64,000 nt of DNA from Bacilli bacterium (lineage in GTDB: Bacteria > Bacillota_I > Bacilli_A > RF39 > UBA660), in assembly GCA_017428495.1 (NCBI GenBank), contig JAFRQS010000011.1, positions 140,215 through 204,214 on the forward strand. Reading direction: 5' to 3'. The notes beneath the pieces were generated by a model that was not told the origin of the DNA, did not search any database, and saw only the letters and a program-made list of their open reading frames with translations. Positions 9,900-64,000 of this stretch are shown here, piece by piece. The stretch's first letter is position 1. Each line of letters opens with the position of its first letter. Position numbers and translations under genes: made by a program.

Positions 9900-9940
9900 A
9901 AAAGAATTCTATTTCTTATCAATAGAATTCTTTTTTTTAT
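9899..9940. terminator. bidirectional intrinsic terminator
   Basis: AGAATTCTATT-N7-AATAGAATTCT perfect hairpin followed by T8; sits between the convergent 9612 gene and trmK. Confidence 0.7.
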
Positions 9941-10574: not shown

Positions 10575-11649
10575 TTAAATAATCCTTAAGTTTTTTTGAT
10601 CTTGAAGGATGTCTCAATTTTCTCAATGCTTTTGCTTCTATTTGTCTTATTCTTTCTCTTGTAACTCCAAACATATTACCTACTTCCTCTAATGTCCTAC
10701 AAGTACCATCTTCAAGACCAAAACGTAACCTTAATACTTGTTCTTCTCTTTCAGTTAATGTAAGTAATACTTCAGCTATTTCATCTTTTAATTTAGAATT
10801 TATTGCATACTCTTCAGGACCCATACTACTCTCATCCTTGATAAAGTCTGCTACACATGAATCTTCATCTTCTCTAGTTGGCTTTTCTAATGATATTGGA
10901 TCAACATCAATTTTAATTATTTCTCTTATTTTATCAACTGGTAATCCCATTTTTTCAGCCAATTCTTCTTCAGTAGGTTCCCTATTAAGCTCTAATGTTA
11001 ATTGTCTTTGTGTTCTCTTTAATTTATTAATTGTTTCAACCATATGTACTGGTACTCTTATTGTCTTAGCTTGATCGGCAATAGCCCTTGTTATAGCTTG
11101 TCTTATCCACCAAGTTGCATAGGTACTAAACTTATATCCCTTTGTAGCATCAAATTTATCTACTGCTTTCATTAATCCCATATTACCTTCTTGAATCAAA
11201 TCCAAAAATGATAGATTTCTTCCAACATAACGCTTTGCTATTGAAACTACTAAACGCAAATTAGATTCTGCTAATTTGTTTTTTGCTTCAACATCGCCAT
11301 TTGCTACTTTCTCAGACAATTCTAATTCTTCGTCTAATGATAATAAGCTTATTTTACCTATTTCTTTTAAATACATTCTAACAGGATCATTAATGCTTAC
11401 TGTTTTTGGTATAGATAAATCTCCAATTACCTCTCCACCTTCAGTTTCATTACTGCCATCATCTACATCTTCACTTACAACTTCTATACCCATGTCATGA
11501 AATAAATTATATAATTCATCTAATGAATCACTATCCATCTCTAGACCTTTTAAGTTTTCAGCCAATTCTTCAAATGTAATATAACCTTTTTCTTTTCCTA
11601 TTTTAACTAATATTTTTTTTCTTTCTTCAAACGTTTTAATCTCATTCAT
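10567..11649 (-). CDS. sigA: RNA polymerase primary sigma factor
   Basis: 360 aa; regions 1.2-4 all present ([40 protein letters not shown]-like, TLEEVG...[17 protein letters not shown]). Confidence 0.95.
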
Positions 11650-11650
11650 A

Positions 11651-13366: not shown

Positions 13367-13540
13367 ATTTACACCCTACAAATATATTATTCTATCTTTT
13401 TATAACAATTTCCCCTAAAATTTTTAATTTTTTTACTATTATATTTTTTTTATTAAAAAAAGCAATTAAAATATCACTTTTTAATAAAAAAAGTAGATTT
13501 TTCTAATTACTCTACTTTTATATACACTTTTAACCTACTC

Positions 13541-13891
13541 TTACCCATTTATTATTCCTAATAAATAACTATTTCTTGATTGCAGTTCATTAAACTTATT
13601 ACTTATCTCAGTATTAGCTTGTTGTAAAGCATCCTCTACTTTTTTTAATTCATTATTATAATCATTTAATTTATCAAGAGACAATGAAATTTCATCATTT
13701 ATTATTGCCTCACTAGCTTGTTCATATGTTGCTAGAATATTACTGCTGCATTCACTTACAACACCTTTTAAAGCATTTACTTTACCCTTTAATGATTCTA
13801 ATTCATTCATTAAACTTATGTTACTGTTATATTCTACTATTTCTTTATTATGAAATATTTTTTTAACTACTCCAAAACCATCTTCTGCCAT
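13541..13891 (-). CDS. hypothetical coiled-coil protein
   Basis: ORF trimmed to MAEDGFGVV...; heptad-rich, no family recognised. Confidence 0.45.
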   Translation of the reverse strand: MAEDGFGVVKKIFHNKEIVEYNSNISLMNELESLKGKVNALKGVVSECSSNILATYEQASEAIINDEISLSLDKLNDYNNELKKVEDALQQANTEISNKFNELQSRNSYLLGIING

Positions 13892-15640: not shown

Positions 15641-16301
15641 CTTCAAAGAAATTGCCGGAATCTAAATATAAGATTCCTTTTTTATTTACTTTAGATAATA
15701 TTTTTAAATATTCATTTATAGCAGTAATTTTATATAAAGTTACGTACACATAATTACCATCATTCATTGTAATTAAAAATCTTTCTTTATCAATATTATT
15801 TGGATCATATTTAATTTCTGAAATCATAAATTTAATTTCATCATTTATATTTTGATATTTTTCAGAAAATTTAAATAATATATCATCATTTAAATTACCT
15901 ACTAATGAAGGAAGTTTATATTTATTATTATCTACTTGTTCACCATTTGATAATACCACTTTATTATTATATATAAAAAGAGGGGTATTTTCTTCAACAC
16001 TTATTGTTAATATATTACCAATATTCTTATTTACTTTTACTGATTTTATAAACTTATTCTTAAACAAATTATTTTTAATTTTATATTTAAATGTAAGTAT
16101 AAAACTCGGATAATTTCTTATTCCTGCTATATCTATTACCTCTTGGTCAGACAAATATTTATTATTTTCAATATATATATTATTTATTGGAGATTTAATT
16201 ACTCTATATATGTTATACCCAATTATATATGCAATTAGTAAGAACACCAATAACTTTGCAAAATTAAATCTTTTTTTTACAACTTCCTCTTCTTCTTTCA
16301 T
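15630..16301 (-). CDS. divIB: cell division protein DivIB/FtsQ (POTRA domain)
   Basis: 223 aa; cytoplasmic N-terminus, one TM, then POTRA-like region; immediately downstream of murG-murB. Confidence 0.65.
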   Translation of the reverse strand: MKEEEEVVKKRFNFAKLLVFLLIAYIIGYNIYRVIKSPINNIYIENNKYLSDQEVIDIAGIRNYPSFILTFKYKIKNNLFKNKFIKSVKVNKNIGNILTISVEENTPLFIYNNKVVLSNGEQVDNNKYKLPSLVGNLNDDILFKFSEKYQNINDEIKFMISEIKYDPNNIDKERFLITMNDGNYVYVTLYKITAINEYLKILSKVNKKGILYLDSGNFFEEIN

Positions 16302-19298: not shown

Positions 19299-19627
19299 TA
19301 ATCTTCAAACCTTTTATATATAGGCCTTGGTTCATAACTTTCTACTACATCATCTTTTTTTACAAAATCTTGCAATAATTTTATACCTTTTTCAATATTA
19401 CTTAAATTTTTCTTTACACTATCCATATTTATATTTCTAATACTATTTATTACATTAGATAAATCATTTGTAACTACTGTTTTATATTTAGAAAACACAG
19501 AATCATCATCACCATACATATCCCATAATTCATATAATTCTTGCCATGTAGTGGCCTTATTTTGTACATAAGTTGCAAATGATGGATACTTACGTACAAA
19601 AGCTTTAAACTCTTCTTTTTTATCCAT
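19298..19627 (-). CDS. YlbD-like putative spore coat protein
   Basis: 109 aa; EEFKAFVRKYPSF...TWQELYELWDMYGDDDSVF resembles the YlbD_coat family signature. Confidence 0.5.
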   Translation of the reverse strand: MDKKEEFKAFVRKYPSFATYVQNKATTWQELYELWDMYGDDDSVFSKYKTVVTNDLSNVINSIRNINMDSVKKNLSNIEKGIKLLQDFVKKDDVVESYEPRPIYKRFED

Positions 19628-19651
19628 AATATCACCACTACATTATATTCA

Positions 19652-22180
19652 TTATGAATTAAAATCTTTCAAAAAATCATCTATTGTTAATATTTTATTA
19701 TCAATTTCCTCTAATGATATACTTTCTTTAGTAATCACTTTTTCTACTACTTCTACATCCATTGAATTTTTATTTTCCATACCTTTAACTATAAATGCAT
19801 CAGTTATAGATTTAGCAATATTAGAGCCTGTACTTAACCTATCCATAATAGGCATTTCAGTATTTTTAATAAAATCAATATCATTATTATTTTTAATACC
19901 TATTAATTCTTTTTTTACTTTAAATACCCTAAGTACTCTATGTGGATTAGTTTTAACTTCCCTAATTATTAACATACCTCTTCTTGCTCTTGCACTCATC
20001 TCTATATCAGATATTCTTAGTCTTTTTGCAGTACCTTTATTAGTAATAATTGCAATATGTTCAAAGCTTCCATCTAAAAGCAATCCACTTACAACATAAT
20101 CATCTTTTAACTTAATTGATTTAACTCCTGCTGATTTAATACCAGTTACTGGTACTTCACTCATATTAAACATTAAAGAATATCCAGTATTTGTTACTAT
20201 TAAAGCATTATTATATGGTTCACATGTTACATCTACTACTACATCTTCTTCTTTTAATTTTATATTTACTACAGGTTTTGAATAACGTTGTAATTTGTAA
20301 TCAGATAATAACGTTCTTTTTATCATACCCATTTTTGTAAATGTTGTTATATACATTTCCTTATCAAAATCATAAACAGGTATAGAAGATATTATTTCTT
20401 CACCCTCTCTTAAAGGTATTATATTACTTATATGTTTACCTAATTCCTTCCATTTAGAATCAGGAAGTTCATATACAGGAACATACAAATAATTACCCAA
20501 ATTAGTAAACATAAGTATTGTATCAGTAGTATTAACTTCATACATACCTATTACATAATCGCCATCTTTCATAGAAGTGTCTTCATCCTTACTAGAAGAA
20601 TAACTTCTTAAAGATACTCTTTTTACATAACCTTCCTTAGTAACCACTACTACTACATCTTCTTTAGGTATTAAATCTTCTTTATCAATATTTATCTCAG
20701 TTATTTCATCTTTTATTTCAGTCTTTCTATCAGTTGCATATTCTTTCTTTATTTTCTTCAATTCATCTTTCATGAATCCTTTTAATTTCTCTTCATCATT
20801 TAAAATACCTCTCAATGTATTTATAATAATACCAAGATTTTTCATTTCTTCTTGTAATTCAGTAATATCTGTATTAGATAATCTATATAATTGTAATTCA
20901 ACTATTGCTTTAGCTTGTTTTTCAGTAAATCCAAATTTAGCTACTAAATTAGCTTCTGAATCTGCTCTATTCTTACTACTCCTAATAGTTGCTATTACTT
21001 CATCTAATATACTTATTGCTTTAATTAAACCTTCTACAATATGCATACGAGCTTCCGCATGAAGAAGATCAAATTCATTTTTCTTTATTGTTACTTCTTT
21101 TTTATGAGCAATATAAGCATCCAACATATCAAGTAATCCCAATAATTTAGGCCTTCTACTTTCTATACCAATCATATTAAAGCCATATGATACTTGAAGT
21201 TCAGTATTTTTATATAAATAATTAAGTATTAAATCAGTATTAGCATCCTTTTTAACATCTATTACAATTCGAATACCTTCTCTATCTGATTCATCTCTTA
21301 TTTCAACCATACCATCTATTTTTTTATCCACTCTTATTTCATCAATAGATTTAACAAGCATAGCTTTATTTACTTCAAATGGTATTTCATCAATTATAAT
21401 ACTTGTCTTACCTTTAACAGTTTCAACTCTTACTTTAGATTTAATTATTATCTTACCTTTACCAGATTCATAAGCCTTCCTAATACCATCTATTCCTTCA
21501 ACTATACCACCTGTAGGAAAATCAGGTCCCTTAATTATATTCATTATTGTTTCTAACTTGCTATTCGGATATTCTATTCTATAAATAGTTGCATCTATTA
21601 CTTCACCCAAGTTATGAGGTGGAATATTAGTAGCATATCCAGCACTTATACCTGTTGCACCATTTACTAATAAATTAGGAAATCTAGCTGGTAATATTGT
21701 GGGCTCAAGTAATGAATCATCATAATTTGGTGCAAATACTACTGTATCTTTATCGATATCTTTAAGCATTTCACCTGCTATTTTACTAAGCCTTGCTTCA
21801 GTATAACGCATTGCAGCTGGTGAGTCTCCATCTATAGAACCATTATTACCATGCATATCAACAAATGGTGTATTACTCTTCCACCATTGAGATAATCTTA
21901 CCAAAGCATCATATATAGAACTATCACCATGTGGATGATATTTGCCCATAATATCACCAACACTTCTAGCACTCTTTCTATAAGGTTTTTCAAATGTATT
22001 CTTCTCTTTATACATTGAATACAATATTCTTCTTTGAACAGGCTTTAAACCATCTCTAACATCAGGTATAGCTCTGTCTTGAATTATATATTTTGAATAT
22101 CTTCCAAATCTTTCACCCATTATTTCTTCTAAAGAATATTCATATATTTTCTGTATTACATCTTTCATATGCTTCACCAA
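19652..22180 (-). CDS. parC: DNA topoisomerase IV subunit A (GyrA/ParC family)
   Basis: 842 aa; EIMGERFGRYSKYIIQDRAIPDVRDGLKPVQRRILY, active-site region MRYTEARL, C-terminal beta-pinwheel; no parE/gyrB adjacent; true start may be the MKDV Met 4 codons in. Confidence 0.85.
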   Translation of the reverse strand: MVKHMKDVIQKIYEYSLEEIMGERFGRYSKYIIQDRAIPDVRDGLKPVQRRILYSMYKEKNTFEKPYRKSARSVGDIMGKYHPHGDSSIYDALVRLSQWWKSNTPFVDMHGNNGSIDGDSPAAMRYTEARLSKIAGEMLKDIDKDTVVFAPNYDDSLLEPTILPARFPNLLVNGATGISAGYATNIPPHNLGEVIDATIYRIEYPNSKLETIMNIIKGPDFPTGGIVEGIDGIRKAYESGKGKIIIKSKVRVETVKGKTSIIIDEIPFEVNKAMLVKSIDEIRVDKKIDGMVEIRDESDREGIRIVIDVKKDANTDLILNYLYKNTELQVSYGFNMIGIESRRPKLLGLLDMLDAYIAHKKEVTIKKNEFDLLHAEARMHIVEGLIKAISILDEVIATIRSSKNRADSEANLVAKFGFTEKQAKAIVELQLYRLSNTDITELQEEMKNLGIIINTLRGILNDEEKLKGFMKDELKKIKKEYATDRKTEIKDEITEINIDKEDLIPKEDVVVVVTKEGYVKRVSLRSYSSSKDEDTSMKDGDYVIGMYEVNTTDTILMFTNLGNYLYVPVYELPDSKWKELGKHISNIIPLREGEEIISSIPVYDFDKEMYITTFTKMGMIKRTLLSDYKLQRYSKPVVNIKLKEEDVVVDVTCEPYNNALIVTNTGYSLMFNMSEVPVTGIKSAGVKSIKLKDDYVVSGLLLDGSFEHIAIITNKGTAKRLRISDIEMSARARRGMLIIREVKTNPHRVLRVFKVKKELIGIKNNNDIDFIKNTEMPIMDRLSTGSNIAKSITDAFIVKGMENKNSMDVEVVEKVITKESISLEEIDNKILTIDDFLKDFNS

Positions 22181-48715: not shown

Positions 48716-49054
48716 ATGATTGAATTATTTACTATTTTAATAAAAAATATGCTATTAACAGGTGCATATCAAAATCAAGTATTTAAAGATCCTCTTAGTG
48801 AAGAAGAAGAGAAATATCATATTAAAGAAATGGGTAATGGTAGTATTAAATCTAGGGAAATACTTATTGAACATAATCTTAGATTAGTTGCGCATATAGT
48901 TAAAAAATATGGTGAAAAAGGAGATAGCTTAGATGATTTAATAAGTATTGGTACAATTGGATTAATTAAAGGAATTGATTCTTTTTCAAAAAGTAATGGT
49001 GCAAAATTAACAACTTATTGTGCAAGATGTATTGAAAATGCACACCTCACATAA
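48716..49054 (+). CDS. sigK: sporulation sigma factor SigK, N-terminal half only (spoIVCB-like; gene interrupted)
   Basis: MIELFTILIKNMLLTGAYQNQVF pro-sequence, then ILIEHNLRLVAHIVKKYGEKGDSLDDLISIGTIGLIKGIDSF...YCARCIEN, near-identical to B. subtilis pro-sigma-K region 2. Reading frame ends 4 codons past CIEN, where B. subtilis sigK is split by skin. Confidence 0.8.
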   Translation: MIELFTILIKNMLLTGAYQNQVFKDPLSEEEEKYHIKEMGNGSIKSREILIEHNLRLVAHIVKKYGEKGDSLDDLISIGTIGLIKGIDSFSKSNGAKLTTYCARCIENAHLT

Positions 49055-51211: not shown

Positions 51212-53311
51212 TTAAAATCCTAAATTTTTATAAATTTTTATACTATTATTATCTACTTCTATATAAAAATCATCTGATGAAAGATTATTAATTTGTTCTT
51301 TTATTAAATCTTTTATATCATTATTTACTTTTATTTCACAATGCATAATAAAATTATCTATTGGATATTTAATATCAAAAGTATAACCTTCTAATATATT
51401 AGATATATTTTCAACAATGTCCTTATATAATTCTTTATATTCATCATAAAAAGAATCTACATTTTCATTTGAAGATTCTTCTTTTCTATACTTTTGTCTA
51501 TTAACTCTTTTATTTAAATTCTCTACTGTATAATAGGTATAAGACATATCTTTTAAAGCTCTTATATCTCTAGTTATTTCACCCTTTTTATAACATGCAA
51601 ATTTCTTATATATAACTGTATCTCTAAATACTGGATAACCTTTAATTGGAAATATAATAGTTTTAAAATAAAGTTGTTTTACTTCTTCTGGTGTCATTAA
51701 ATCTCTGCCCATCAAAGAAGTAGATCTATTCCCATTAAAATCACTTTTGGAAATAGATTGACTAACTGAATTTGATTCTATTGTCTTCTTACCTAATCTT
51801 TTAGATATCGCTTCAGCAGTTTCTTGTGTATTAGTCTTTAAATAAACTAAACCACAGTTATCTAATATTGTTTGAGCTACATCTTTACCATATACATTAT
51901 CTAATTGAGCAAAAGATTGTATAAAAAACTGAAATCTCATACCTCTACTTCTTGCTACTGAAATAATAGTACTAATATCTTCAAGTGGTGGACAGTTAGC
52001 AAATTCATCTAATAACCAATCAATTTGTACTGGTAATATTTTTTCAGGGATATTGTTGGCAATTTTTACCAATTCCTTATATAATAATCCAACTATTATA
52101 GTAACAAGTTTATAATAAGTCTTATCTTCATCTGGAACAATTATATACATTGCTGTAGGTTCTTTACCTAAAATACCAAAATCAAAATCACTTGTTGATG
52201 TAATATTTGATACATTAACATCATCAAATAAACTCATCTTTTCTGAAAAAGTTGCAGTTATACTTTTATATGTATTTTCTGCACTAGAAAAAATAGATGT
52301 TAATGTATCCTTGCTTTTTAGTCCATAAGGTTTACTATCTACATAAGTAGTAAGAATAGGAAAATTATTTTCATTCATAGATGAATTTTGAAATTTCTTA
52401 ATACTTGTTAGAGTTATTTTTTCTCTATCAATTTTCCCATCCTTATATTCTTCTAAAAATAAACCAATTAATCCTTCTAATAAATTCTTAGCAGAATTAT
52501 TCCAAAATGGATCTTTCTCTAATCCTTTATCATTCATAATCATTGCTGAAATAGAAGTAATTAGCTTATTACATTCAGCAAGATGTCTCATAGCATTATT
52601 TTTATATAAAGTTAAATTAGGTTCAATCTCTTTTAATTCATTCTCTTTTAAAATAATTTCATTTTCTTTATCATTATAATTTAATCCTTCCTTTTTCATT
52701 AACTCTATATCTTCTTTTAACATTTCAATACCACTATATAAATAGTTAATATCTGATTCAACATTAATAGCTAATTTATCATATTTCATATATTCTTCAT
52801 ACTCATTAATAATTGGCTCAAGTAAATTTATTTTATTAGATAATTCTGGATTTCTAAAATCAATTGTAATTATATTATATGAATTATCTTTAAACATTTT
52901 TGAAGTAGTATTAAATATTTCACCTTTTGGATCTGTTATAAATACACTTCTTTTTTTAGTTGCAGTAGCAATAAAACTACACATTGGAATAACTGCTGTA
53001 ACAGACTTACCACTTCCAGTAGAACCTAAAAAACACCAATGAGGTGTTTCTCTATCAAACCATACATATTTCTTATTTCTACTATACCATATAGGAAATC
53101 CAACCTCATTAATATTTTTTATTTCTTCTTTATTATAAATGCTATTTATTTCTTTAAATGTAGCAAATCTTGCACTTCCATATTCATTACTATTATTTAC
53201 ATCTTTAAATAAAACAATATAAATATTTTCAACATTATTAAAAATTATTGTATATGGATTATCTTTACTTTTTTTAATCCTTAATTTAATCATAACTATT
53301 CCTCCTATCAA
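51212..53311 (-). CDS. TraG/VirD4/FtsK-like P-loop ATPase (type IV coupling-protein-like)
   Basis: 699 aa; Walker A FLGSTGSGKS, DPKGE, Walker B WLLDEFAN, RSRGMRF motifs characteristic of coupling-protein ATPases; no N-terminal TM seen. Confidence 0.65.
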   Translation of the reverse strand: MIGGIVMIKLRIKKSKDNPYTIIFNNVENIYIVLFKDVNNSNEYGSARFATFKEINSIYNKEEIKNINEVGFPIWYSRNKKYVWFDRETPHWCFLGSTGSGKSVTAVIPMCSFIATATKKRSVFITDPKGEIFNTTSKMFKDNSYNIITIDFRNPELSNKINLLEPIINEYEEYMKYDKLAINVESDINYLYSGIEMLKEDIELMKKEGLNYNDKENEIILKENELKEIEPNLTLYKNNAMRHLAECNKLITSISAMIMNDKGLEKDPFWNNSAKNLLEGLIGLFLEEYKDGKIDREKITLTSIKKFQNSSMNENNFPILTTYVDSKPYGLKSKDTLTSIFSSAENTYKSITATFSEKMSLFDDVNVSNITSTSDFDFGILGKEPTAMYIIVPDEDKTYYKLVTIIVGLLYKELVKIANNIPEKILPVQIDWLLDEFANCPPLEDISTIISVARSRGMRFQFFIQSFAQLDNVYGKDVAQTILDNCGLVYLKTNTQETAEAISKRLGKKTIESNSVSQSISKSDFNGNRSTSLMGRDLMTPEEVKQLYFKTIIFPIKGYPVFRDTVIYKKFACYKKGEITRDIRALKDMSYTYYTVENLNKRVNRQKYRKEESSNENVDSFYDEYKELYKDIVENISNILEGYTFDIKYPIDNFIMHCEIKVNNDIKDLIKEQINNLSSDDFYIEVDNNSIKIYKNLGF

Positions 53312-53645: not shown

Positions 53646-54815
53646 ATGTTAAATTACTTTAAAAAAAAATTAAATATTATTTTTTTAATAATATTACTTA
53701 CTATTCCATTTAAGATAAATGCAAGTACTTATGATATTTTTGGTTTAGAATTTAAAATTAATAATACTGATTTCAATACATTTATAAAAGATAATATTAA
53801 TAGAGCACAATTAGATGTTGATTTTCTAAATTTTATAGATGCTGTTTTCAATGATGGTGGATTTTTATATGCTACAAATAATGATACATCAAAAGAAATA
53901 TTTATTTATGCTTATGAATATAATGATATTAATTTGAATGTACAAAGCAAAGAAAATATTAAAAAATTTGAAAATATAATTTTATATCAAAATAGTGCTG
54001 AAAATCATGATATCTATGAAATTAATAATTATAAATATATTTTTTTTCAATATAACTATGAAAACTTATTTATAATTGACTACTATACTATAATGAATGG
54101 ATATGTTTTTTTAATTAGATTTCAACAAAGCAGCAATTTTACAGTTCAAGAAAAGCAAGATATAAAATCGTTAATTGACAATATTAATTATATTAATTAT
54201 CAAAAGGTATATAAGATTTTTGATTTAACATTAAATTATAATGAATTTGGATGGTTTTATTTTACTAGAGATAATTTCAAAAATAATCCATCATTAAATA
54301 CCCTAGGAATTAATTACGAACACATTAATAATTTTTTTAATAATAATAAAGATTGTTATATGAATGCAGTTAAAATAACAGATAATTTAAAAGAAGAATT
54401 TTTTATAATTGCTAAAGATAACAATAATTATAAAAATTTAAATGCAGAATCGAATAAAAATATAAATAAATATATAGAAGAAATCTCACAATTAACAAAT
54501 AGCAAAAATATATATACATATGAATTTAATAATTTCAAATATATTTTTGCTGAATACTATGACAAAAACCTTAATTATAATATAATAGATTATTATACTA
54601 TTTTTGATAAAAAAGTATATATAATTAAATTTCAACAAGAAAAAAAATTTAGCGCAGTTCAAAAAGAAAACATAAAAAAAATAATTGATAGTATATATTT
54701 TAAAAATGACAATGAATCTTTAATTGTAAATAATTATTATTTATTATATTTTTGCATAATTATTGTATTAATTACATCATTTTTCAAAATTTTAATAAAA
54801 AAAAGAAAGCACTAA
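53646..54815 (+). CDS. secreted/membrane-anchored protein with internal two-domain duplication
   Basis: Signal peptide MLNYFKKKLNIIFLIILLTIPFKINAS, two homologous ~100-aa modules (…IDYYTIMNGYVFLIRFQQ… / …IDYYTIFDKKVYIIKFQQ…), C-terminal TM. Confidence 0.6.
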   Translation: MLNYFKKKLNIIFLIILLTIPFKINASTYDIFGLEFKINNTDFNTFIKDNINRAQLDVDFLNFIDAVFNDGGFLYATNNDTSKEIFIYAYEYNDINLNVQSKENIKKFENIILYQNSAENHDIYEINNYKYIFFQYNYENLFIIDYYTIMNGYVFLIRFQQSSNFTVQEKQDIKSLIDNINYINYQKVYKIFDLTLNYNEFGWFYFTRDNFKNNPSLNTLGINYEHINNFFNNNKDCYMNAVKITDNLKEEFFIIAKDNNNYKNLNAESNKNINKYIEEISQLTNSKNIYTYEFNNFKYIFAEYYDKNLNYNIIDYYTIFDKKVYIIKFQQEKKFSAVQKENIKKIIDSIYFKNDNESLIVNNYYLLYFCIIIVLITSFFKILIKKRKH

Positions 54816-54842
54816 GAATAACATATTATTCTTAGTGCTTTT

Positions 54843-55688
54843 TTATTCAATTATTTTAATTATTTCATTTATATATTTTGAAACACTTATTATTTTTTCG
54901 TGTTCTTTTTTATACAATAATTCATAATTATTACTTGGCAATAATTTTAGCCATTCCCCATTATCAGCTATCCATTGTCCATTAGCAATTTTATGCCATG
55001 TATAATTTGAATCTGTATTTGTCTCTAAATCATTATATATTCCATTTTCTTTCACATAGCCTAATATTGTAGATTGTAAATTAGGATTATCTCTAACGCG
55101 AAGATTGGATACCATTACTATTAATTGATCATTATTTTCATTTCTTTTGACATCTTGTGTAATCATAATATTCCCTACTTTCTTCCATAAATATTTGCTA
55201 TATTTTATTATTGTTTCATTGTTTATAAACAATGCATTAAATGGTTCTATGGTGTTTTTTAATTTATAAACATTTCCTACTTTTTCATTAATATAAATAT
55301 ATTCAGTTGGCATTACAAATTTGCCTCTCTGAACTTCTAAGTGGCAATGCTTTGACACACCTCCTGCTGTCCCCATATTGGAATATGTTTCTCCTTGTTT
55401 AAATCTTGAACCCACTTTTGGTGGATTATTATCATGACCAGTCCATAATGTCATATAATCAATAGTACCATTTGCATACTTCACCTTTTCATTACTTTGA
55501 AATGCTATGCCTCCACCATATTTTTGTGGGTCAACATGAACTATAGTACCATCAAAAGGTGCAATTAAATTTGTCACATAATAAGGCTTCAAAATACCAA
55601 AGTCAATTGCTTTAGTACTCTTATGGCTTCCAACATTCATTTCTTGACTTATCCATGTTTTAGAAATAGGAAAAATTGCACATTGCAT
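54843..55688 (-). CDS. M23-family peptidoglycan peptidase with SH3b-like C-terminal domain (endolysin-like)
   Basis: HxxxD (HKSTKAID) and HxH (HCHLEV) zinc motifs; C-terminal YTWHKIANGQWIADNGEWL SH3b-like wall-binding segment. Confidence 0.72.
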   Translation of the reverse strand: MQCAIFPISKTWISQEMNVGSHKSTKAIDFGILKPYYVTNLIAPFDGTIVHVDPQKYGGGIAFQSNEKVKYANGTIDYMTLWTGHDNNPPKVGSRFKQGETYSNMGTAGGVSKHCHLEVQRGKFVMPTEYIYINEKVGNVYKLKNTIEPFNALFINNETIIKYSKYLWKKVGNIMITQDVKRNENNDQLIVMVSNLRVRDNPNLQSTILGYVKENGIYNDLETNTDSNYTWHKIANGQWIADNGEWLKLLPSNNYELLYKKEHEKIISVSKYINEIIKIIE

Positions 55689-55689
55689 A

Positions 55690-56052
55690 TTATCCTATTC
55701 CTATCTCTGTTTCTTTTTCATATTCTTTTTCCTTAAAATCAACTTTTATTGTAAACATTTCTTTTAATTTAATCAAATCGTTGTATCCATATAATGAAAT
55801 TCCACTTATAAAAATTACCTTCATTCCATCAATTAAATTAAGATTATTTCCATCTATAGATATAATTAATATATTAGGATTTAAATAACTACATAAATAT
55901 AATAAAATGCAACTTATAATTATAAAAAAAGCCTTAAATAATCCATTTAAAAATTTATTTTTGTTCCACTCTTTCTTTATTGTTGCAAGTGAACAACCCA
56001 ATAATACATTTGAAATCATGACACAAATTAAACCAATAATTATTTTTATCAC
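55690..56052 (-). CDS. small polytopic membrane protein (holin/antiholin or toxin-immunity candidate)
   Basis: 120 aa, 3 predicted TM, translationally coupled to flanking genes. Confidence 0.5.
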   Translation of the reverse strand: MIKIIIGLICVMISNVLLGCSLATIKKEWNKNKFLNGLFKAFFIIISCILLYLCSYLNPNILIISIDGNNLNLIDGMKVIFISGISLYGYNDLIKLKEMFTIKVDFKEKEYEKETEIGIG

Positions 56053-56342
56053 TTTAAATCTCCTTTTAAATTTGGCAATTCATAAATTTTATTAACCATG
56101 GAAGTTATCATTCCATTTCCACCAAGTTTATGGTAACTTCTATAAATTTCTTCTATATTTTCTTTTATATAACTAGGACAATAACCAAAATCAATGTATA
56201 GTTCATACATTCTAATAATCTCATTACTAAGTAAGGCTTTGATTCCGTTTTTTAATCCCATATATTGTTTAAAAATATATATTATTAAAGAAGTTATCAT
56301 AGTGAACAAAAATTCTATCCAATATTTTAATATAAAATTCAT
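56049..56342 (-). CDS. small membrane protein (holin-like or Rhs-toxin immunity candidate)
   Basis: ~97 aa, N-terminal TM, YHKLGGNG motif; first gene after the Rhs toxin, directly upstream of the M23 peptidase. Confidence 0.5.
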   Translation of the reverse strand: MNFILKYWIEFLFTMITSLIIYIFKQYMGLKNGIKALLSNEIIRMYELYIDFGYCPSYIKENIEEIYRSYHKLGGNGMITSMVNKIYELPNLKGDLK

Positions 56343-56422: not shown

Positions 56423-59400
56423 TTAATTATTAATATCCCATTTAATTGATTCATATGTGCCAGGATTATAATATGGTCCAAGTTTATCATCAATATAATT
56501 TCTCATTCCATTTATACTACTAGAAAAACTATTATTTATTATATTTGATGCAACACCTTTGAAAATTGTCTTACCCGATACTTCTTTTATTATATCTTTT
56601 CTAATTTTAGTAGTATTTGATTTGAATACAGCACTATAACTATTTCTACCAGTAGTAATTTTTGGTGCCTTTATTGCTGGTACAGCTGAAATTGTTCCAA
56701 TAGCTGCATCAACAGCAGTATCTTTCATAATGTCCTTAAAAGGTCTTTTTTCCTCTCTTCCAATATTTTTTAAACCTTCAGATGTTAATCTAGACACTGC
56801 AGCAGAACCACCTCCAACTAGCAATGGATTTGCTGTAACTAAAGATATTCCAGTTCCTACTGAACCTCCAACACCTGATCCTACATAATCTTGCCATGGA
56901 GATACCTTCAATTCTCCAGACATTACACTATTGACTCCATCACTTATAGCTTGGCCTGCTAAACCAGCCAATGCTCCTACTCCTAATAACAATAATATTC
57001 CACCAATTACACTTTTACCATAATTGTCTATGTCATTTATAGGATTATTATTGCAATAAGTGTATAAATTGCAACTGATTATATCATTATTTTCACTAAC
57101 TAAACCATCTAAATTAATAAATCTACATAATTCAGGTGAATAATATCTGTTATTCAAATAATATAAAGATGTTTCGTTATCATAGTAATAACTTCTATAT
57201 CTAAATGAATTTATATGTGCTACACTAGTACTATCATTAATAATTGCCCCACTACCATCTGTTATTGAAATAATATTTCCATATGCGTCATAATTATATC
57301 TCGCTATTATATTATTTGTATCATTTAAAATTGCTATTATATCTCCAAATAAATTTTTTAAATAATAATAAATACTACCATTATATTTAAATCCAATTAA
57401 ATCTCCAACACCATTTCTTATATAAAATATTGTATTATTATTTGTTGTTTCACTAACAATCTTACTTCCCTCTAATTTATACGTGGTTTCAATATCATTT
57501 ACAATCTTCTTTTCACGTACACCATTAAAGTCGTATTTATAAGTAACAGATACTGTATTATCACTATAACTACTTAGTTGTCTACCATTTATCCAAGTTA
57601 AAACTTTATTTCCAATTGAAGTTGGATTACCAATATTATCATAAGTTATAAGTTGATTATTAAATTTAGTTAATTGATTTTTCCAATTACTATTTTGATA
57701 TTTATATATTTGTTGTGATATCTGATTATATGTATTAATATAATATGTTTTTTTAGAAATCACATTACCATAATTGTCGTATTTATAACGAAATGTTGTA
57801 TTTAGTAAATAATTATGATCAGTTACTAATTGATTATAAATATCATAAATATATTCATTCTGTAATTCATTATTATAATAAATTTTAACGATATTTCCTA
57901 AACTATCATACTCATAATCATATTTTTCATTATTTAATATAATACTTTTAATTTTTGTAGAATTCCTATATCCATTAGATAAATATTTATATTCTATATT
58001 AAAAGTATTATTAATTCTTTTATTTGTTAATCTGCCAATCTCATCATAAATATAATCAATTATTTTTGTATCAAATTCAGTTTGTATAATAGAATCCTCA
58101 GAATTATAAGTATTTTCTACTTTTTCCCTATTATTTCCTATTATATATTCTTTACTAGTTATATTATCATTTAAATCATAATTATATATAATTTTAAAAT
58201 TGTCTGTTATATATTTGGATAATCTCTTAGCCAAGTCATAAATAAACTTTTTATATCCACTATTATCAACTATTTTAACTAACTCTCCATTATTATCATA
58301 ATAATACCTATATGTATTATCAGATTTTACAACTTCTTTTATTCTATTAAAATCGTCATAATTATATAAAATACTATTGTTATTACCATATGATGAAGAA
58401 TATAAATTACCATTGTTAATTTCATAATCATTATTTATTAGAGTTATATTATTTCCAATCTTTACACTTGTCAAATTACTAAAATTATCATATAAAAAAT
58501 TATATTCAATATTGCCATCAAAAACTTTTGTAAGCAAATTCTGATTATAAGAAAACTCTAAAAATTTATTATTGTTTTTTATTTTTACTAATTGTTTTTT
58601 GTTGTTATACTCATACTCTATTTTACAACCATTAGCATTAGTAATGTAGTTTAGCAATCCTGTTACATCATCAATATTATAAGAAGTCTTATTAAACAAT
58701 GAATCTATAATTTGTGTTAAATATTTTCCACTTGTATCATATTTAGCATCATTTTCAATAAATAATTTGTTAAAATTTTCTATATAAAAATTATAATTAT
58801 CATTATTATCTTCCAAATTATCTAATACAATGCTATTGTTAATTATTTTTAAATATTTTCCATTTGATTTTGATTGAATTTTATAACTTCCATTATTATT
58901 TTTTATCAAAGAAAACAAAGAGTTATCACCATCATAAGAGCTCAAAATTAAATTTGAATTAGATACAGTAAAATATTTATTATTAATTATAGAATGATTT
59001 ATTGTGTAATAAGAACCACTTGACTCAAAATACCATTTATCATGACCGCATTTATCAACATCTACATTAAGTTGATTATTAATTAATCTGAAGTAATTAT
59101 CAGTTCCTTTTTGTCTTATCCTATACAAAGCATTTGTAATTTCTTCTAAATTTTCTTTTGCTATTTTAGTGCAAATTGGATTACCATATACATCACAATT
59201 AACAATATTTGATATACCAGAATTACTTATTCCTCTAATCATTCTATTTGTTATTATATTATCATATTCAAAACAGTAGTTTTTACCTAATGGATTAGTT
59301 ACTTCTATTAGTTGATTATTTTTGTCATATTTAAACTCATTTAAATCATTATTTAAACCTCGAGATAAAATAATGTTTCCATTATCATCATAGTCATAAG

Positions 59401-62400
59401 AAATAGAGCCTATATTCTTAAACAAATTTATATCTGTTATATAGAATTCATTAGCATTTAGTTCTTGATCTAAAAATAATGTAAATGAGTTATAATCTGC
59501 TGCTGCAACAAAATTTACTGAAAAATATTGCCATTCGGTTTCATTTGGAATAAATGATTTACTTTGTAAAATTGGTCCATAAGGATTACTTCCTTCGACA
59601 TAATCGAAGTCCATATCAATTACATTATAAAAAAATGCACCCATTCCATAGTCAGAAACTATTCCTTTATTTTTATACCATAATGATAATGTATAAACAT
59701 CACCAGCAGCACCTGAAATATTAAATGTTTTACTGAATTTTGTAATAATATCCGGATTCATATTAATTTTTAATGCGGTTTTACCAGTGCTTAATGTAAC
59801 TGTTTCAAATAAGTTACTTAAATTTATTGTTGGATAATCAGTAGGATCTGCAAAATTATAAATAACATCATGATAATCTGCACTTACATTCCAATCTGCA
59901 TAACCACTTGAAAAATCTGAATTTTCAACTAAATTATAGTCATTTGCAACTTCACCTTTTTCTAACTGAATTGCATCTACATATGTTGTACCAGAATCAG
60001 TAATAATTTCTAATATTAAATTACCTGTAGCAGTTGTAGGATAATTAATAGTTACATCACTTCTATAGAAATCAGTATTATCGTCAACTTCATTTCCATA
60101 AACTCTTACTACTTCATTACTTGAATCAATATAACTAAGTGCTACTTTTGCTATATTACCTGTTTTTAAATATGCACTAAATGTATAATCATTACCTTTT
60201 GAAACAGATATATTTCTAGATATAATACTACCAATATTATTTGAAATAATTTTAAGAGATTTTTTACCTATATATGCTTCATCTTGTGACAATGAAAGTG
60301 ATACTCCTGATGGGGCTGAAAAATCAATAGTTGTAGATTCAAAATTACTATTAGTAACATAGTTTTTTACTGATTGAATAGGTATATAATCTTCCATTAA
60401 TTTATTTGAATATTTAGTAAATGTTGTACCAACAGCTTCACCATAGTTAATGCTTTTCCCATAAGCATCACCTACATCCTCTCTAGCCTTTAATGAAGAA
60501 GTTGACTCCAATGTGCCATTATCTTTAAATGTCATAGTAGTTGTTTTTCCATCATTATCAGTTATAGTTGTTGAATTAAATTGATATAACACATTATAGT
60601 ATCTTCCTAATGTATTATTATACCCATATTCAGATACTTTCTTTATTCTAAATGGTGAAATTTCATAATATTCATATGCAATTTTTGTTTGATCAATATC
60701 AACAATTTCGGTAATTATATTATTTGCATTATAAGAAAATGACATAGTACCTAAATATGACACAATACTAGTAATCTTATTATTTGATAAATTAATTGTT
60801 CTATTACCATCTGGATTGGTTACTACAATATTATTGTTATTATATACAATGCTTATTTGAGCATTATCTGCATCTACTATTGTAGTAATTCTATTATTAT
60901 TATCATAACTTATTGTAATAGTATTATCTTTTACATCTCTAATTTCTGATAAATAACCAACACCATTAGATTTTATGAATTTCATTTTATTTCCATCTTT
61001 ATCCTCTAATAGATAGTAGTTAGTATTATCAGTAATTATTAAATTAAGTCCATCTTCATCCTTATAAATACCATCATCTAAATAAAAATAATGGATTGTA
61101 CTATCATCATCTATATATTTTAAATATAAAATTTCATTTATTGTCTCTTCCTCAATTGTTTGAGATAAGTTAAGTCTCCAACCAAGCCCATAACCAATAT
61201 TATTATTTGATATCACATCATTTGTATTATAAACTAAGTTTAAATTAGCCGGTAATTTACCTCCTATAGTTTTTCCTATATCAAATAGACCAACTAAATT
61301 TCCATTATAATTATTAACATATGTATTTCCAATATTAAAGCTTTGTTTGAAATAATTCATATAGTTTTCTAAACCATTTTGATTTCTGTATATTATTACC
61401 AAATAAGGTGTACTATTACTTTCTCTTGATGAAAATGTTGGAACTACAGAATTTTTATACTCTTCTGTATTTTGTTTTATCATCAAGCCATTATTAACTT
61501 TATCTGTGTACCAGTGTTTAACTATATTTGTTATATCACTAGTTAACAAATTAAATTGTGAATTATCTGACCCTAATAATGGCATCAAATCACAATCACT
61601 TACACCTTCAATTCTAGATTCATAATTACTATTCATATTATTCCAATTAGCAGTAGATTCATTCCAATCAGTTGTAATTGGATGTAGAGCAAATACTACA
61701 TGTTTAAAATCAGATGCTGGAAAATTTGTTTCATATCCTGTTAAATTTAATTGAGCAGATACAACTTGATCTCCAGTAGATAAAGGTGGTAAGTTAAATT
61801 TTATTAAAGCTCTATTTGGAACATCTACTCCATTAACTTTTTCAACACCAATTTTAAAATAGCTTAGACTTCCTCTACTAATATTGGTATCTCCTGGATA
61901 AATATATGTATCTTTAACTGATGTACTTTGATTATCTAATATTATCGTTGGATCAATAATAACCGGATATTCAGCCTTATTTAGCCAATCTTTATTTACA
62001 TTTAGTTCTAATAAATATTGTCCATCTTTTTCATCTATATTATAAAAAATATCACAACATTCATTAGTTTTATTATCAATCATAAAAGGCGCTTCAAATC
62101 TAAATATTTCATTATCATCTTTCGAAGCAATTATACTTTTATCTTCTTTTAAATTTAATTTTAAATTAGTATCAACATTAAATACTATTTTTTGATCTAT
62201 ACTACTTTTATCATTTATTACTATATTTTCTTTTATTTTACCATTTATCAATTTATATTCAATATCAATACCATTTAATATATTCAAATATTTAAATAAA
62301 TACTTATTTATATCAATCTTATCAATTTTACTATTAAGCAACTTTAATTTTAAATAATAATTATCTTGCTCAATTTCTAATAAATTATTTGTTTCTTTTT

Positions 62401-62602
62401 TATTAAATTTAACACTATAAGAATTGCTTTTATTAACATAAAAGTCATCTTGTTCTATAAGTGTATTATCAATTTCTACATATTTGTCATTTTTTAAATA
62501 ATGGATATCTTCGTTATAAAGACATACTTTAACAGTTCCATCTTCTCTTAAAAAATGTTTTTCTCTTGGTTTTCTTTTCTCTAATAGTTCTATTTCTTTC
62601 AT
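56423..62602 (-). CDS. Rhs/YD-repeat polymorphic toxin with ricin-B-like lectin module and glycine-zipper C-terminal domain
   Basis: Start trimmed to MKEIELLEKRK (RBS AAAGGAG). Many YD repeats (YEYDSLGNIVKI, YNYDAYGNII). Rhs core end YYLNNRYYSPELCRFINLDG...DIDNYGKS. QxW-like beta-trefoil region (DKWYFESSG...). 190-aa C-terminal tip rich in GxxxG (GGILLLLGVGALAGLAGQ...). Confidence 0.85.
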   Translation of the reverse strand: MKEIELLEKRKPREKHFLREDGTVKVCLYNEDIHYLKNDKYVEIDNTLIEQDDFYVNKSNSYSVKFNKKETNNLLEIEQDNYYLKLKLLNSKIDKIDINKYLFKYLNILNGIDIEYKLINGKIKENIVINDKSSIDQKIVFNVDTNLKLNLKEDKSIIASKDDNEIFRFEAPFMIDNKTNECCDIFYNIDEKDGQYLLELNVNKDWLNKAEYPVIIDPTIILDNQSTSVKDTYIYPGDTNISRGSLSYFKIGVEKVNGVDVPNRALIKFNLPPLSTGDQVVSAQLNLTGYETNFPASDFKHVVFALHPITTDWNESTANWNNMNSNYESRIEGVSDCDLMPLLGSDNSQFNLLTSDITNIVKHWYTDKVNNGLMIKQNTEEYKNSVVPTFSSRESNSTPYLVIIYRNQNGLENYMNYFKQSFNIGNTYVNNYNGNLVGLFDIGKTIGGKLPANLNLVYNTNDVISNNNIGYGLGWRLNLSQTIEEETINEILYLKYIDDDSTIHYFYLDDGIYKDEDGLNLIITDNTNYYLLEDKDGNKMKFIKSNGVGYLSEIRDVKDNTITISYDNNNRITTIVDADNAQISIVYNNNNIVVTNPDGNRTINLSNNKITSIVSYLGTMSFSYNANNIITEIVDIDQTKIAYEYYEISPFRIKKVSEYGYNNTLGRYYNVLYQFNSTTITDNDGKTTTMTFKDNGTLESTSSLKAREDVGDAYGKSINYGEAVGTTFTKYSNKLMEDYIPIQSVKNYVTNSNFESTTIDFSAPSGVSLSLSQDEAYIGKKSLKIISNNIGSIISRNISVSKGNDYTFSAYLKTGNIAKVALSYIDSSNEVVRVYGNEVDDNTDFYRSDVTINYPTTATGNLILEIITDSGTTYVDAIQLEKGEVANDYNLVENSDFSSGYADWNVSADYHDVIYNFADPTDYPTINLSNLFETVTLSTGKTALKINMNPDIITKFSKTFNISGAAGDVYTLSLWYKNKGIVSDYGMGAFFYNVIDMDFDYVEGSNPYGPILQSKSFIPNETEWQYFSVNFVAAADYNSFTLFLDQELNANEFYITDINLFKNIGSISYDYDDNGNIILSRGLNNDLNEFKYDKNNQLIEVTNPLGKNYCFEYDNIITNRMIRGISNSGISNIVNCDVYGNPICTKIAKENLEEITNALYRIRQKGTDNYFRLINNQLNVDVDKCGHDKWYFESSGSYYTINHSIINNKYFTVSNSNLILSSYDGDNSLFSLIKNNNGSYKIQSKSNGKYLKIINNSIVLDNLEDNNDNYNFYIENFNKLFIENDAKYDTSGKYLTQIIDSLFNKTSYNIDDVTGLLNYITNANGCKIEYEYNNKKQLVKIKNNNKFLEFSYNQNLLTKVFDGNIEYNFLYDNFSNLTSVKIGNNITLINNDYEINNGNLYSSSYGNNNSILYNYDDFNRIKEVVKSDNTYRYYYDNNGELVKIVDNSGYKKFIYDLAKRLSKYITDNFKIIYNYDLNDNITSKEYIIGNNREKVENTYNSEDSIIQTEFDTKIIDYIYDEIGRLTNKRINNTFNIEYKYLSNGYRNSTKIKSIILNNEKYDYEYDSLGNIVKIYYNNELQNEYIYDIYNQLVTDHNYLLNTTFRYKYDNYGNVISKKTYYINTYNQISQQIYKYQNSNWKNQLTKFNNQLITYDNIGNPTSIGNKVLTWINGRQLSSYSDNTVSVTYKYDFNGVREKKIVNDIETTYKLEGSKIVSETTNNNTIFYIRNGVGDLIGFKYNGSIYYYLKNLFGDIIAILNDTNNIIARYNYDAYGNIISITDGSGAIINDSTSVAHINSFRYRSYYYDNETSLYYLNNRYYSPELCRFINLDGLVSENNDIISCNLYTYCNNNPINDIDNYGKSVIGGILLLLGVGALAGLAGQAISDGVNSVMSGELKVSPWQDYVGSGVGGSVGTGISLVTANPLLVGGGSAAVSRLTSEGLKNIGREEKRPFKDIMKDTAVDAAIGTISAVPAIKAPKITTGRNSYSAVFKSNTTKIRKDIIKEVSGKTIFKGVASNIINNSFSSSINGMRNYIDDKLGPYYNPGTYESIKWDINN

Positions 62603-62634
62603 TTTTTCTCCTTTCAATGTGTAAAAAAGAACAA

Positions 62635-63888
62635 TTAAGCTGTTCTTTTCCACATATAAACTTCGTATCTTAAAGGTGTTACAGAGTGAGTATGGTTTCC
62701 AAGTGTATGAGTATGTGAACTAAGTGTATGAGTATGTGAACTAAGTGTATGAGTATGTCCTTTACCTCCACCTGTATTTTGGTTGGTTGCAGTAGCATTA
62801 GCAGTATAATATGTTGAAACTCCAGCTTGTGCATTATAACCTGACGCATGACCAACATAACTATCTTTAGGAGTTACATTCATCCAAGTATCTGAATGCT
62901 GTGCATGTCTATGTGCATTTTGAACATGAGTATGACTAGGCATTTGTTCAATAGTTATTGCAGTACTTCCAGATGTATTTGTACTTGGTCCACCGGATGT
63001 ATTTGTACTTGGTCCACCAGATGTATTTGTACTTGGTGTCCCAGATGTATTGCTTCCAGCAGTATTTCCCCCAGTTCCTGCATATAAATAATATCCATTT
63101 ATTCTCTGCCATGTACCACCAAATAGTGTCGCAGGACTAGTGTTTAATATGGACATATAAATACTTCCCACTGGATATATTAAATCACATATTGTTTGTT
63201 CATCTATAATTCCTGATGAACCATTTGTAGTAATTGAATTAACAACTAAATTACCATTTGCATCTAAACTAAATTTATTATTTTTCGATGTTAAACATTC
63301 TGCCTCCAAATTATCAATCTCAAGATTTAATTTATTTTGAGTTTTTGTAAAGGCATCTTTAAAATATATATCATCTTTAGTTAATGCTCTTTTATCCCTT
63401 TGTCCATTGAAAATACCACTTGATAAATACATTTTATTTTCATCTGTATCTTTCAAAAATATTGCTGTTATTTCGATATTTGAATAGTTTGTATAAATAT
63501 AGTTAGTTCCATCAAATAATACTATATCAGCTATGTCTAATTCTTCCTCTACTGGTTCTAATAACTCACTTGTTCCATCACTACTAATTTTTCTAATTAC
63601 TTTTGATATTAATAGCGAATCATTTTCTACTACATTAACCTCTTGTAATAATTCATCACCTGTGCCATTGTAATACCTTAATATATCGTCTAAATTAAAT
63701 ACATATTGCTTCCTTTCTGAAGTAGGATTTGATGAGGCTGCTTTATCAACATATACAATTAAATCATTTGTATTAGGAGCTACTGTATTACTTTTCATTT
63801 TTAAATTTAATCTAAACAAAGATGCACTTAATGCATTTTGTATAATTATTTCATTTTGACCTGTTACTGTTTGGTCTGTTAAATTCAT
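62635..63888 (-). CDS. phage tail-fibre/collar-like protein with His-rich tandem repeats
   Basis: 417 aa; IYPVGSIYMS...FGGTWQRI tail-collar-like motif; TNTSGGPS x3 and HTHTLSS x3 repeats (24-bp and 21-bp DNA repeats at ~62985-63060 and ~62690-62755). Confidence 0.55.
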   Translation of the reverse strand: MNLTDQTVTGQNEIIIQNALSASLFRLNLKMKSNTVAPNTNDLIVYVDKAASSNPTSERKQYVFNLDDILRYYNGTGDELLQEVNVVENDSLLISKVIRKISSDGTSELLEPVEEELDIADIVLFDGTNYIYTNYSNIEITAIFLKDTDENKMYLSSGIFNGQRDKRALTKDDIYFKDAFTKTQNKLNLEIDNLEAECLTSKNNKFSLDANGNLVVNSITTNGSSGIIDEQTICDLIYPVGSIYMSILNTSPATLFGGTWQRINGYYLYAGTGGNTAGSNTSGTPSTNTSGGPSTNTSGGPSTNTSGSTAITIEQMPSHTHVQNAHRHAQHSDTWMNVTPKDSYVGHASGYNAQAGVSTYYTANATATNQNTGGGKGHTHTLSSHTHTLSSHTHTLGNHTHSVTPLRYEVYMWKRTA

Positions 63889-63947: not shown

Positions 63948-64000
63948 TATTTGCTAGGTAACTTCATAGGAATTTCACCTTCTTGTAACATCAAGACAGT
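63948..64000 (-). CDS. 3' end of an upstream minus-strand gene (partial, unknown)
   Basis: Open frame ending ...EGEIPMKLPSK-stop before the RBS of the tail-fibre-like gene. Confidence 0.3.

Follow-up and report, generated by a model that had tools for sequence, protein, structure and literature searches.

The window analysed here (the whole stretch of 64,000 nucleotides [nt] of contig JAFRQS010000011.1, from a Bacilli bacterium of the RF39 lineage) has a G+C content of about 25%, and its minus strand bears a tight run of five genes that encode, in this order, a phage tail fibre-like protein, a giant Rhs/YD-repeat protein of 2,059 amino acids (aa), a small membrane protein of 101 aa, a holin, and a peptidoglycan hydrolase. 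The run lies within a 22.4-kb element that interrupts the sigK gene. An earlier sequence-only reading of this DNA had described the Rhs protein as a polymorphic toxin encoded beside a tail-collar protein and a lysis cassette in a skin-like element, and the open reading frames (ORFs) and coordinates that it gave were confirmed. The features of the locus are the following.

62635..63888, minus strand: fibre-like protein, 417 aa (Pfam Gp10_C, PHROG tail protein)
56423..62602, minus strand: Rhs/YD-repeat polymorphic toxin, 2,059 aa (RHS_repeat, Rhs-associated core)
61394..61915, minus strand: DNRLRE domain of the surface/carbohydrate-binding type, residues 230-403 of the Rhs protein (NF033679, 1.6e-23)
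59936..60364, minus strand: beta-sandwich resembling a carbohydrate-binding module (CBM; GTA head-spike-fibre domain), residues 747-889 (NF048003, 2.5e-13)
58673..59152, minus strand: beta-trefoil module within residues 1151-1310 (RicinB_lectin_2, PDB profile)
57017..57292, minus strand: end of the Rhs-associated core, residues 1771-1862 (TIGR03696; alignment with Tse15, TcC, and SGS1)
56426..57010, minus strand: C-terminal tip, residues 1865-2059 (∼195 aa), a Gly-rich six-helix module and putative membrane-inserting toxin
56049..56342 (longer form to 56354), minus strand: lysis cassette accessory membrane protein, 97-101 aa (phrog_4105)
55690..56052, minus strand: holin, 120 aa (Phage_holin_4_1, TIGR01593, transmembrane [TM] segments)
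54843..55688, minus strand: peptidoglycan hydrolase, 281 aa, M23-like and SH3b-like (PHROG endolysin)
54806..54841, minus strand: strong intrinsic terminator closing the operon (16-bp stem and T-run)
62620..62654, minus strand: hairpin and U-run over the fibre stop codon (sequence, RNAfold)
63964..64000, minus strand: 3′ part of a pemK RNA motif, operon leader (Rfam RF02913)
48716..49040, plus strand: 5′ half of sigK, left boundary of the 22.4-kb element (NCBIfam SigK model positions 3-113)

The Rhs ORF starts with MKEIELL behind a strong GGAG ribosome-binding site, its stop codon is located 68 nt from the 101-aa gene, and the sole strong terminator of the operon lies directly 3′ of the hydrolase gene. 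The gap between the fibre and Rhs ORFs is 32 nt, and the hairpin AAAGAACA-GCTTAAT-TGTTCTTT, followed by TTT, is present across the TAA stop codon of the fibre gene, as had been noted before. With a stem of 15 bp and a folding energy of −14.6 kcal/mol (z −5.3, RNAfold), it looks like a leaky terminator or attenuator that would lower the expression of the Rhs gene relative to that of the fibre gene. The diverged loci L017 and L025 carry hairpins of other stem sequence at the equivalent position (loci are given here by L numbers; the relatives are metagenome-assembled genomes labelled uncultured Bacilli or Tenericutes, and all locus counts are those of pattern-seeded scans rather than of a full census).

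A scaffold from an ENA metagenome (L001) is identical to the window over an 11.3-kb overlap, save for one 48-nt indel, and extends past the window end (window position = 73889 − L001 position). On this scaffold, the pemK RNA motif RF02913 was found at positions 9848-9925 with 47.1 bits (gathering cutoff, 34.8), so that the full motif would span window-equivalent positions 63964-64041 and is cut by the window end. It is preceded by a strong terminator and a TTGACA promoter-like site and is located between the fibre gene and the gene for a sigma-like regulator, a 158-aa protein with sigma-70 region 4 that is also encoded by the element. The motif was detected at this place in all six loci with that regulator (L001, L015, L016, L017, L021, and L030; 41-50 bits) and in none of the loci with the other regulator type described below.

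The Rhs protein matches RHS_repeat (Pfam, 5.4e-25), TIGR01643, and solved Rhs structures (PDB 8h8a, 3e-25, and 7q97), showing that the YD/Rhs shell repeats are present. Ahead of the core end it carries, besides the DNRLRE domain, two stretches matching NF048003, the second CBM-like beta-sandwich following the first. For the ricin-B-like beta-trefoil that had been proposed, RicinB_lectin_2 stayed below the Pfam threshold (1.4e-4, 22.9 versus 25.6 bits), and a profile that covers residues 1151-1310 and was made from 16 homologues matched exclusively beta-trefoils in PDB (MITSUBA-1 at 8e-5, Symfoil, and FGF1/2), in agreement with the proposal. Searches with Pfam and NCBIfam revealed no signal peptide and no LXG, WXG, PAAR/VgrG, SpvB, LysM, or LPXTG domain in the Rhs protein. 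Its N-terminal 60 aa are charged, with a maximal 15-aa hydropathy of 0.11.

The Rhs core ending recognized earlier corresponds to the Rhs-associated core domain TIGR03696 (8.6e-17). Its end, NNNPINDIDNYGKS, was aligned with the ...IDPKGL cleavage motif of Tse15 and also with TcC and the mosquito protein SGS1. The consensus PxxxxDPxGL is degenerate here; the D..G is kept and the P and L are replaced, so that DPxGL reads DNYGK (DIDNYGKS). Two Asp residues, candidates for the catalytic pair of C-terminal autoproteolysis in TcC and Rhs proteins, are both kept at the aligned positions (YYYDNET and INLDG).

Downstream of this core end, the tip had been described as dominated by glycine zippers, which proved to be overstated. 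The first 90 aa of the tip contain 21% Gly, compared to 6% in the whole Rhs protein, yet strict GxxxG motifs were counted 3 times versus 3.3 times in composition shuffles, and [GAS]xxxGxxx[GAST] was counted 4 times versus 2.8 expected. Helix 1 (Kyte-Doolittle [KD] hydropathy, 1.41) is the sole clearly hydrophobic helix. AlphaFold2 (AF2) modelled the tip with confidence as a six-helix bundle with likeness to membrane proteins only; Foldseek returned no significant PDB match for this fold, and a profile search of PDB returned ClyA alone, with an E value of 0.23. No Pfam domain, including the pre-toxin TG domain (PT-TG), matched the tip even at an E value of ≤1, and its assignment to PT-TG or to another Pfam domain was rejected.

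An exhaustive HMMER search recovered at least 367 cluster representatives of the tip family at E values of ≤1e-3 (91 of them at ≤1e-10), with the match always at or near the C terminus of the host protein. The hosts are long Rhs proteins, some of them with signal peptides, WXG100-DUF6531-Rhs proteins, proteins of ∼350 to 400 aa without a Pfam match, and stand-alone ORFs of ∼190 aa. In six of seven informative cases, the related tip is followed by a protein of 160 to 280 aa with two to four N-terminal TM helices and a soluble tail. Such an architecture of immunity proteins is expected for membrane-acting toxins, as described for EsxX/ExiCD (PMC12744356) and for ionophores of contact-dependent inhibition (CDI) systems (PMC11630599). 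A membrane-inserting, depolarizing toxin is the best-supported, if unproven, reading of the tip.

The comparison of tips among relatives bears out the proposal that this is an Rhs polymorphic toxin. In genomes and metagenomes, the relatives keep the core end ...NLYxYxxNNP....D..G.. and then diverge, so that unrelated tips are found on a conserved core, while the tip family itself also occurs on the other toxin scaffolds named above. L015 has a tip 92% identical to that of the window. L016 is an element of the same type (recombinase 100%, fibre 95%, and Rhs core 68% identical) with an unrelated tip that starts directly after the ...GKS core end, which places the breakpoint exactly there. L003, L020, and L021 have GIY-YIG-like tips, and L005, L018, and L032 have others. 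The GIY-YIG-like tips (L003 at ∼15650-15760 and the C termini of L020 and L021) also open with a hydrophobic, Gly-rich helix after the core end, and mosquito SGS1 aligns over the stretch of core end plus helix; such a helix may be a general aid to membrane translocation in this Rhs subfamily. A 63-kb bona fide phage, Anaeroplasmataceae phage NatCom_34063 (L009), encodes a 1,836-aa protein among its replication genes (8098-13608) with an Rhs core end 31% identical to that of the window protein, so that Rhs toxins are also carried as phage cargo in related hosts.

For the two small membrane ORFs after the Rhs gene, the sequence-only reading had left the choice between holins and immunity proteins, which is now largely settled in favour of a lysis cassette and against immunity. 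The 101-aa protein has one TM helix and matches phrog_4105 at 8e-18; its homologues adjoin holin and endolysin genes in Rhs-less phages of Faecalibacterium, Dorea, Bifidobacterium, and Clostridium, and the alignment shows a YH.LGGNG motif common to the window protein and these phage homologues. The 101-aa gene is kept beside the holin gene in L016 despite the replaced tip, and in L021 an immunity-like gene is inserted between the Rhs gene and the 101-aa gene, which there precedes a holin of a different type. The profile of the 101-aa family shows no relationship to the membrane proteins that follow homologous tips (hhalign probability, 0.1%). A role of the 101-aa ORF as tip-specific immunity was therefore rejected, since it occurs in Rhs-less phages and persists across a tip change. 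The 120-aa protein exceeds the Phage_holin_4_1 cutoff narrowly (22.9 versus 22.2 bits) and matches the toxin secretion/lysis holin family TIGR01593 weakly (E value, 0.002). The 281-aa hydrolase matches a PHROG endolysin (1.5e-11) and, below threshold, Peptidase_M23 (E value, 1.3e-3; 19.4 versus 28.7 bits); its C terminus was read by eye as SH3b-like, and it has no signal peptide.

A candidate immunity gene is present directly 3′ of the Rhs gene in the relatives L003, L019, L020, L021, L024, L025, and L029. No homologue of the candidate immunity proteins of L011, L019, L024, L018, L005, and L020 was found in the window, L001, L015, or L016, and the sigK-embedded copies are consistently without a recognizable immunity gene across three tips (window/L015, L013/L014, and L016). 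A 389-aa membrane protein of the element (53646-54815, plus strand) is unlikely to provide immunity, as its architecture differs from that of the immunity proteins and it is split in the otherwise identical L001. Both of its ends carry a signal or anchor, and it contains an internal duplication; the 48-nt insertion in L001 (19074-20291; window position ∼54215) divides its ORF into ORFs of 204 and 194 aa. Paralogous immunity-like genes form arrays 3′ of the Rhs gene in L024 (16320-21007) and L003 (16048-18761). Those of L024 encode proteins of 276 to 283 aa with four TM helices, and a family of soluble 337-aa proteins occurs in L003, L020, L021, L025, and L029. The peptide KVKAFFKKLFS of L024 is common to the C termini of the toxin tip and the immunity-like ORFs and looks like a recombination scar.

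The tail-collar protein had been reported as co-oriented with the Rhs gene, which is correct and falls short of the relationship, since it is a conserved upstream partner in 23 other loci. The fibre protein matches Gp10_C (Pfam, 2.5e-14) and a PHROG tail protein (1.4e-17), and its closest solved relative is T4 gp10 (PDB 2fkk, 4e-4). Its C-terminal Gp10_C/tail-collar domain contains HxH repeats, and its N-terminal ∼170 aa are homologous to a stand-alone ORF of 114 aa in L003. Some loci have two to four paralogues of the fibre gene in tandem (L019, 8186-9975; L032, 8753-9979), and L029 has a second copy just 5′ of the hydrolase gene (9703-10332). This amplification hints at hetero-trimeric or exchangeable fibres.

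Metagenomes and IMG/VR were scanned with a profile of the Rhs N terminus (residues 1-460, specific for this subfamily), which yielded 24 metagenome loci, with 3 further loci from genomes, and no match in IMG/VR; a megablast of the region against phage genomes also gave no match. Beyond the contig of the window itself, 23 loci have one to four Gp10_C-like genes directly 5′ of the Rhs gene or within ∼450 nt of it (33 to 92% identity), and the fibre partner is missing only in three distant matches (27 to 30% identity). Holin and peptidoglycan hydrolase genes adjoin the Rhs gene in about 10 of the 14 loci with enough sequence. They belong to two unrelated lysis cassettes, each with its own sigma-like protein. 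One consists, as in the window, of the 101-aa protein, a holin, and an M23/SH3b hydrolase, with the sigma-like gene upstream; the other consists of an M23-LysM hydrolase and a holin (phrog_199, 2e-24), followed by a 171-aa protein that matches sigma-70 models in three of five members. The hydrolase match in related loci is stronger than in the window (M23 at 2e-20 plus LysM). Other loci are flanked not by prophage genes but by housekeeping genes, such as those for IleS/ValS-type and TyrS tRNA synthetases with T-box leaders and for ABC transporters. Because fibre, lysis, and regulator genes recur with the Rhs gene amid such flanks, we conclude that the fibre and Rhs toxin genes, the lysis genes, and a regulator of their own move as one autonomous cassette, which here is cargo of the sigK element.

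The placement in a skin-like element was substantiated on L001, where the 3′ half of sigK and a large serine recombinase gene (Resolvase, Recombinase, and Zn_ribbon_recom domains) are located ∼22.4 kb beyond the 5′ half. The rejoined SigK scores 304.8 bits (cutoff, 252) over model positions 8 to 233 of 235, and the 10-bp attachment (att) core ATTGAAAATG is present at both junctions (window 49031-49040, L001 2482-2491). Besides the recombinase and the fibre-Rhs-lysis operon, the element contains genes for a UmuC-like polymerase, small ORFs, an XRE regulator, the membrane protein, a VirD4-like protein, and a helix-turn-helix (HTH) protein. No head or tail module (sheath, tube, baseplate, or tape measure) was found in the 22.4 kb, and tail sheath, tube, baseplate, and tape measure genes did not recur in related loci, so that the PBSX-like context suggested earlier was not borne out. 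The skin of Bacillus subtilis, a defective prophage that resembles PBSX, measures 48 kb and has tail genes, and it encodes the LXG nuclease YqcG/YqcF of the T7SS (type VII secretion system) kind with adjacent immunity. Both are sigK-intervening elements with a large serine recombinase, a polymorphic toxin, and a phage lysis cassette; the window element differs from skin in its size, the absence of a tail module, its Rhs toxin with a fibre partner, and the absence of a recognizable immunity gene.

Elsewhere in the element, the first ∼60 residues of the VirD4/TraG-like ORF (51212-53311, minus strand) resemble the N terminus of the 158-aa sigma-like protein (KRRK..DNPY...), and L015 has a separate sigma-like ORF and a serine recombinase fragment at the VirD4 spot (19314-19879). 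This points to a second regulatory unit that came from a conjugative element and was fused or has decayed. The UmuC-like Y-family polymerase gene (Pfam IMS) lies with a small downstream ORF past the window end (L001 4334-6234); L015 has only a short fragment of it, and L016 has it broken up into three ORFs.

Taken together, we favour, at a probability of roughly 0.55, a lysis-released, fibre-associated Rhs toxin with a membrane-inserting tip, encoded by a cassette of phage parts and released in a manner similar to that of the type 10 secretion system (T10SS). The small sigma-70-like regulator and the pemK-type RNA leader, just past the window end, would control one operon for a presumably trimeric fibre-like protein, the Rhs cage toxin, the lysis accessory protein, the holin, and the M23/SH3b wall hydrolase. 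The Rhs protein would be synthesized in the cytoplasm, where the Rhs shell would enclose and shield its tip, and the holin and the hydrolase might then open the producer cell and release the protein. Outside, the DNRLRE, CBM-like, and beta-trefoil modules may bind the target surface, probably together with the fibre partner. The predicted Rhs aspartyl autoprotease would free the helical tip of ∼195 aa, which might insert into the target membrane and dissipate the membrane potential. Release by lysis is the most economical assumption, since an Rhs protein without an export signal shares its operon with a holin and a signal-less hydrolase, and the operon structure, with short gaps, an internal hairpin, and one strong terminator after the hydrolase gene, speaks for it.

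Several points weigh against this interpretation. All functional steps are deduced from sequence, the cleavage motif is non-canonical, and the holin and M23 matches of the window are marginal. GxxxG is not enriched beyond composition in the tip, and helix 1 alone is strongly hydrophobic. The locus has no recognizable immunity gene, which is unusual for an antibacterial polymorphic toxin, and L020 and L028 are without lysis genes within the available sequence. In addition, the order fibre, holin, and endolysin is the normal end of a phage late operon, and the linkage could thus reflect descent and not function.

This last point leads to the possibility, which we regard as unlikely, that the locus is the end of a decayed prophage in which the Rhs gene was inserted as “moron” cargo between tail fibre and lysis genes that are relics without a functional tie to it. 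The fibre, 101-aa, holin, and hydrolase proteins indeed have phage homologues in the order of phage late operons, and VirD4 and UmuC-like genes together with gene fragments give the element a mosaic makeup. Relics, however, would hardly explain why the pairing is retained in 23 other loci down to 33% identity, with tight or overlapping junctions and an expansion of fibre copies, nor why two lysis cassettes with their regulators occur amid housekeeping flanks, with no head or tail genes and no IMG/VR matches; moreover, all ORFs are intact, and the cassette sequence is identical in an independent metagenome contig. About as doubtful is an extension of the lysis-release model, namely, that these cassettes are a distinct and hitherto undescribed delivery class in which a trimeric phage fibre would dock the Rhs cage to target cells and programmed lysis would release the toxin. 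Our literature search found no account that links an Rhs toxin of Gram-positive bacteria to a lysis cassette, and none of an obligate fibre partner or of immunity-less copies in a sigK element. In this extension, expression of the sigK-embedded copies might take place in the mother cell as it differentiates terminally, and the toxin would then be set free with the spore, so that no self-protection would be needed.

Contact-dependent delivery by a conventional export system encoded elsewhere, with the lysis genes serving the mobile element only, appears improbable. Characterized Gram-positive Rhs toxins do use either Sec export with wall anchoring, like WapA (PMC12704120), or the T7SS, and the tip family is also found on WXG100-Rhs proteins; the Rhs protein of the window, however, lacks a signal peptide and LysM, LPXTG, WXG, and LXG domains, and no T7SS genes were found in the element or in related loci. 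Least probable to us is that fibre and Rhs protein are structural add-ons to a phage or tailocin located elsewhere, for example, a toxin-loaded fibre or a tip that binds the receptor, which would make the element a satellite that retargets a helper particle. The separable N-terminal module of the fibre, as in baseplate-attaching fibres, and the late-gene style of regulation would fit this idea, but none of the loci has helper genes linked to it, the subfamily-specific Rhs N terminus is without a homologue in phage databases, and 2,059 aa with an Rhs cage are atypical for a fibre. Neither the decayed prophage nor conventional export nor the satellite fits the recurrence and flank data as well as the lysis-released, fibre-associated toxin.

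Parts of this arrangement are known from other systems. The Tc toxin of Yersinia entomophaga, in which TcB/TcC forms an Rhs cage, leaves the cell through lysis by a T10SS (PMC10847048, PMC10847046) and is likewise a giant Rhs/YD cage toxin with an enclosed C-terminal toxin, no signal peptide, and phage-derived holin and endolysin genes alongside. It differs in its Gram-negative host, its need for a spanin and a pentameric TcA injector, and its insect targets, whereas the window cassette, in a Gram-positive genome, has a fibre-like partner instead of TcA or SpvB and a tip family with bacterial-type immunity genes in relatives. The pathogenicity locus (PaLoc) of Clostridioides difficile, with TcdR as sigma factor, TcdE as holin, and TcdL as the remnant of an endolysin (PMC12485765, PMC12150058), also brings together, in one locus of a low-GC spore former, a large toxin without a signal, a small dedicated regulator of the sigma-like kind, and a holin and hydrolase from phage, and TIGR01593, to which the holin of the window has a weak match, is the TcdE-type family; the PaLoc toxins, however, are glucosyltransferases and not Rhs cages, and it has no fibre gene. 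Concerning the tip, the Rhs protein Tse5 of Pseudomonas aeruginosa has a pore-forming C-terminal domain (PMC9637101, PMC10684867), and TelE, EsxX, and TspA are Gram-positive glycine zipper toxins of the T7SS (PMC10434224, PMC12744356). By their description, these are similar in having a small, helical, Gly-rich C-terminal domain, carried by an Rhs cage (Tse5) or a polymorphic scaffold, that depolarizes or permeabilizes membranes and immunity proteins that are often polytopic membrane proteins, but they are delivered by the type VI secretion system or the T7SS. WapA of B. subtilis and Streptococcus suis, with a Sec signal peptide, wall binding by LysM/CWB domains, and contact-dependent inhibition (PMC12704120), is likewise a Gram-positive Rhs polymorphic toxin, and that of S. 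suis also has a DNRLRE domain, whereas the Rhs protein of the window has neither signal peptide nor wall-binding domains.

The tip represents a large uncharacterized toxin family for which there is no Pfam model and for which a confident helical model is now at hand. With immunity-less copies inside a sigK element that is excised during development, one may ask whether the release of the toxin is coupled to sporulation. The fibre partner, which is conserved, suggests that a principle of targeting was taken over from receptor binding by phages. The passage of very large Rhs toxins through the Gram-positive envelope still awaits an explanation even for WapA (PMC12704120). The cassette described here, which couples a signal-less Rhs protein to a holin, a wall hydrolase, and a sigma-like regulator, offers a concrete and testable route across this envelope that would parallel the release of Tc toxins and of large clostridial toxins, and the presence of the same gene set in many gut bacteria suggests that it is an undescribed Gram-positive route for Rhs toxin release.

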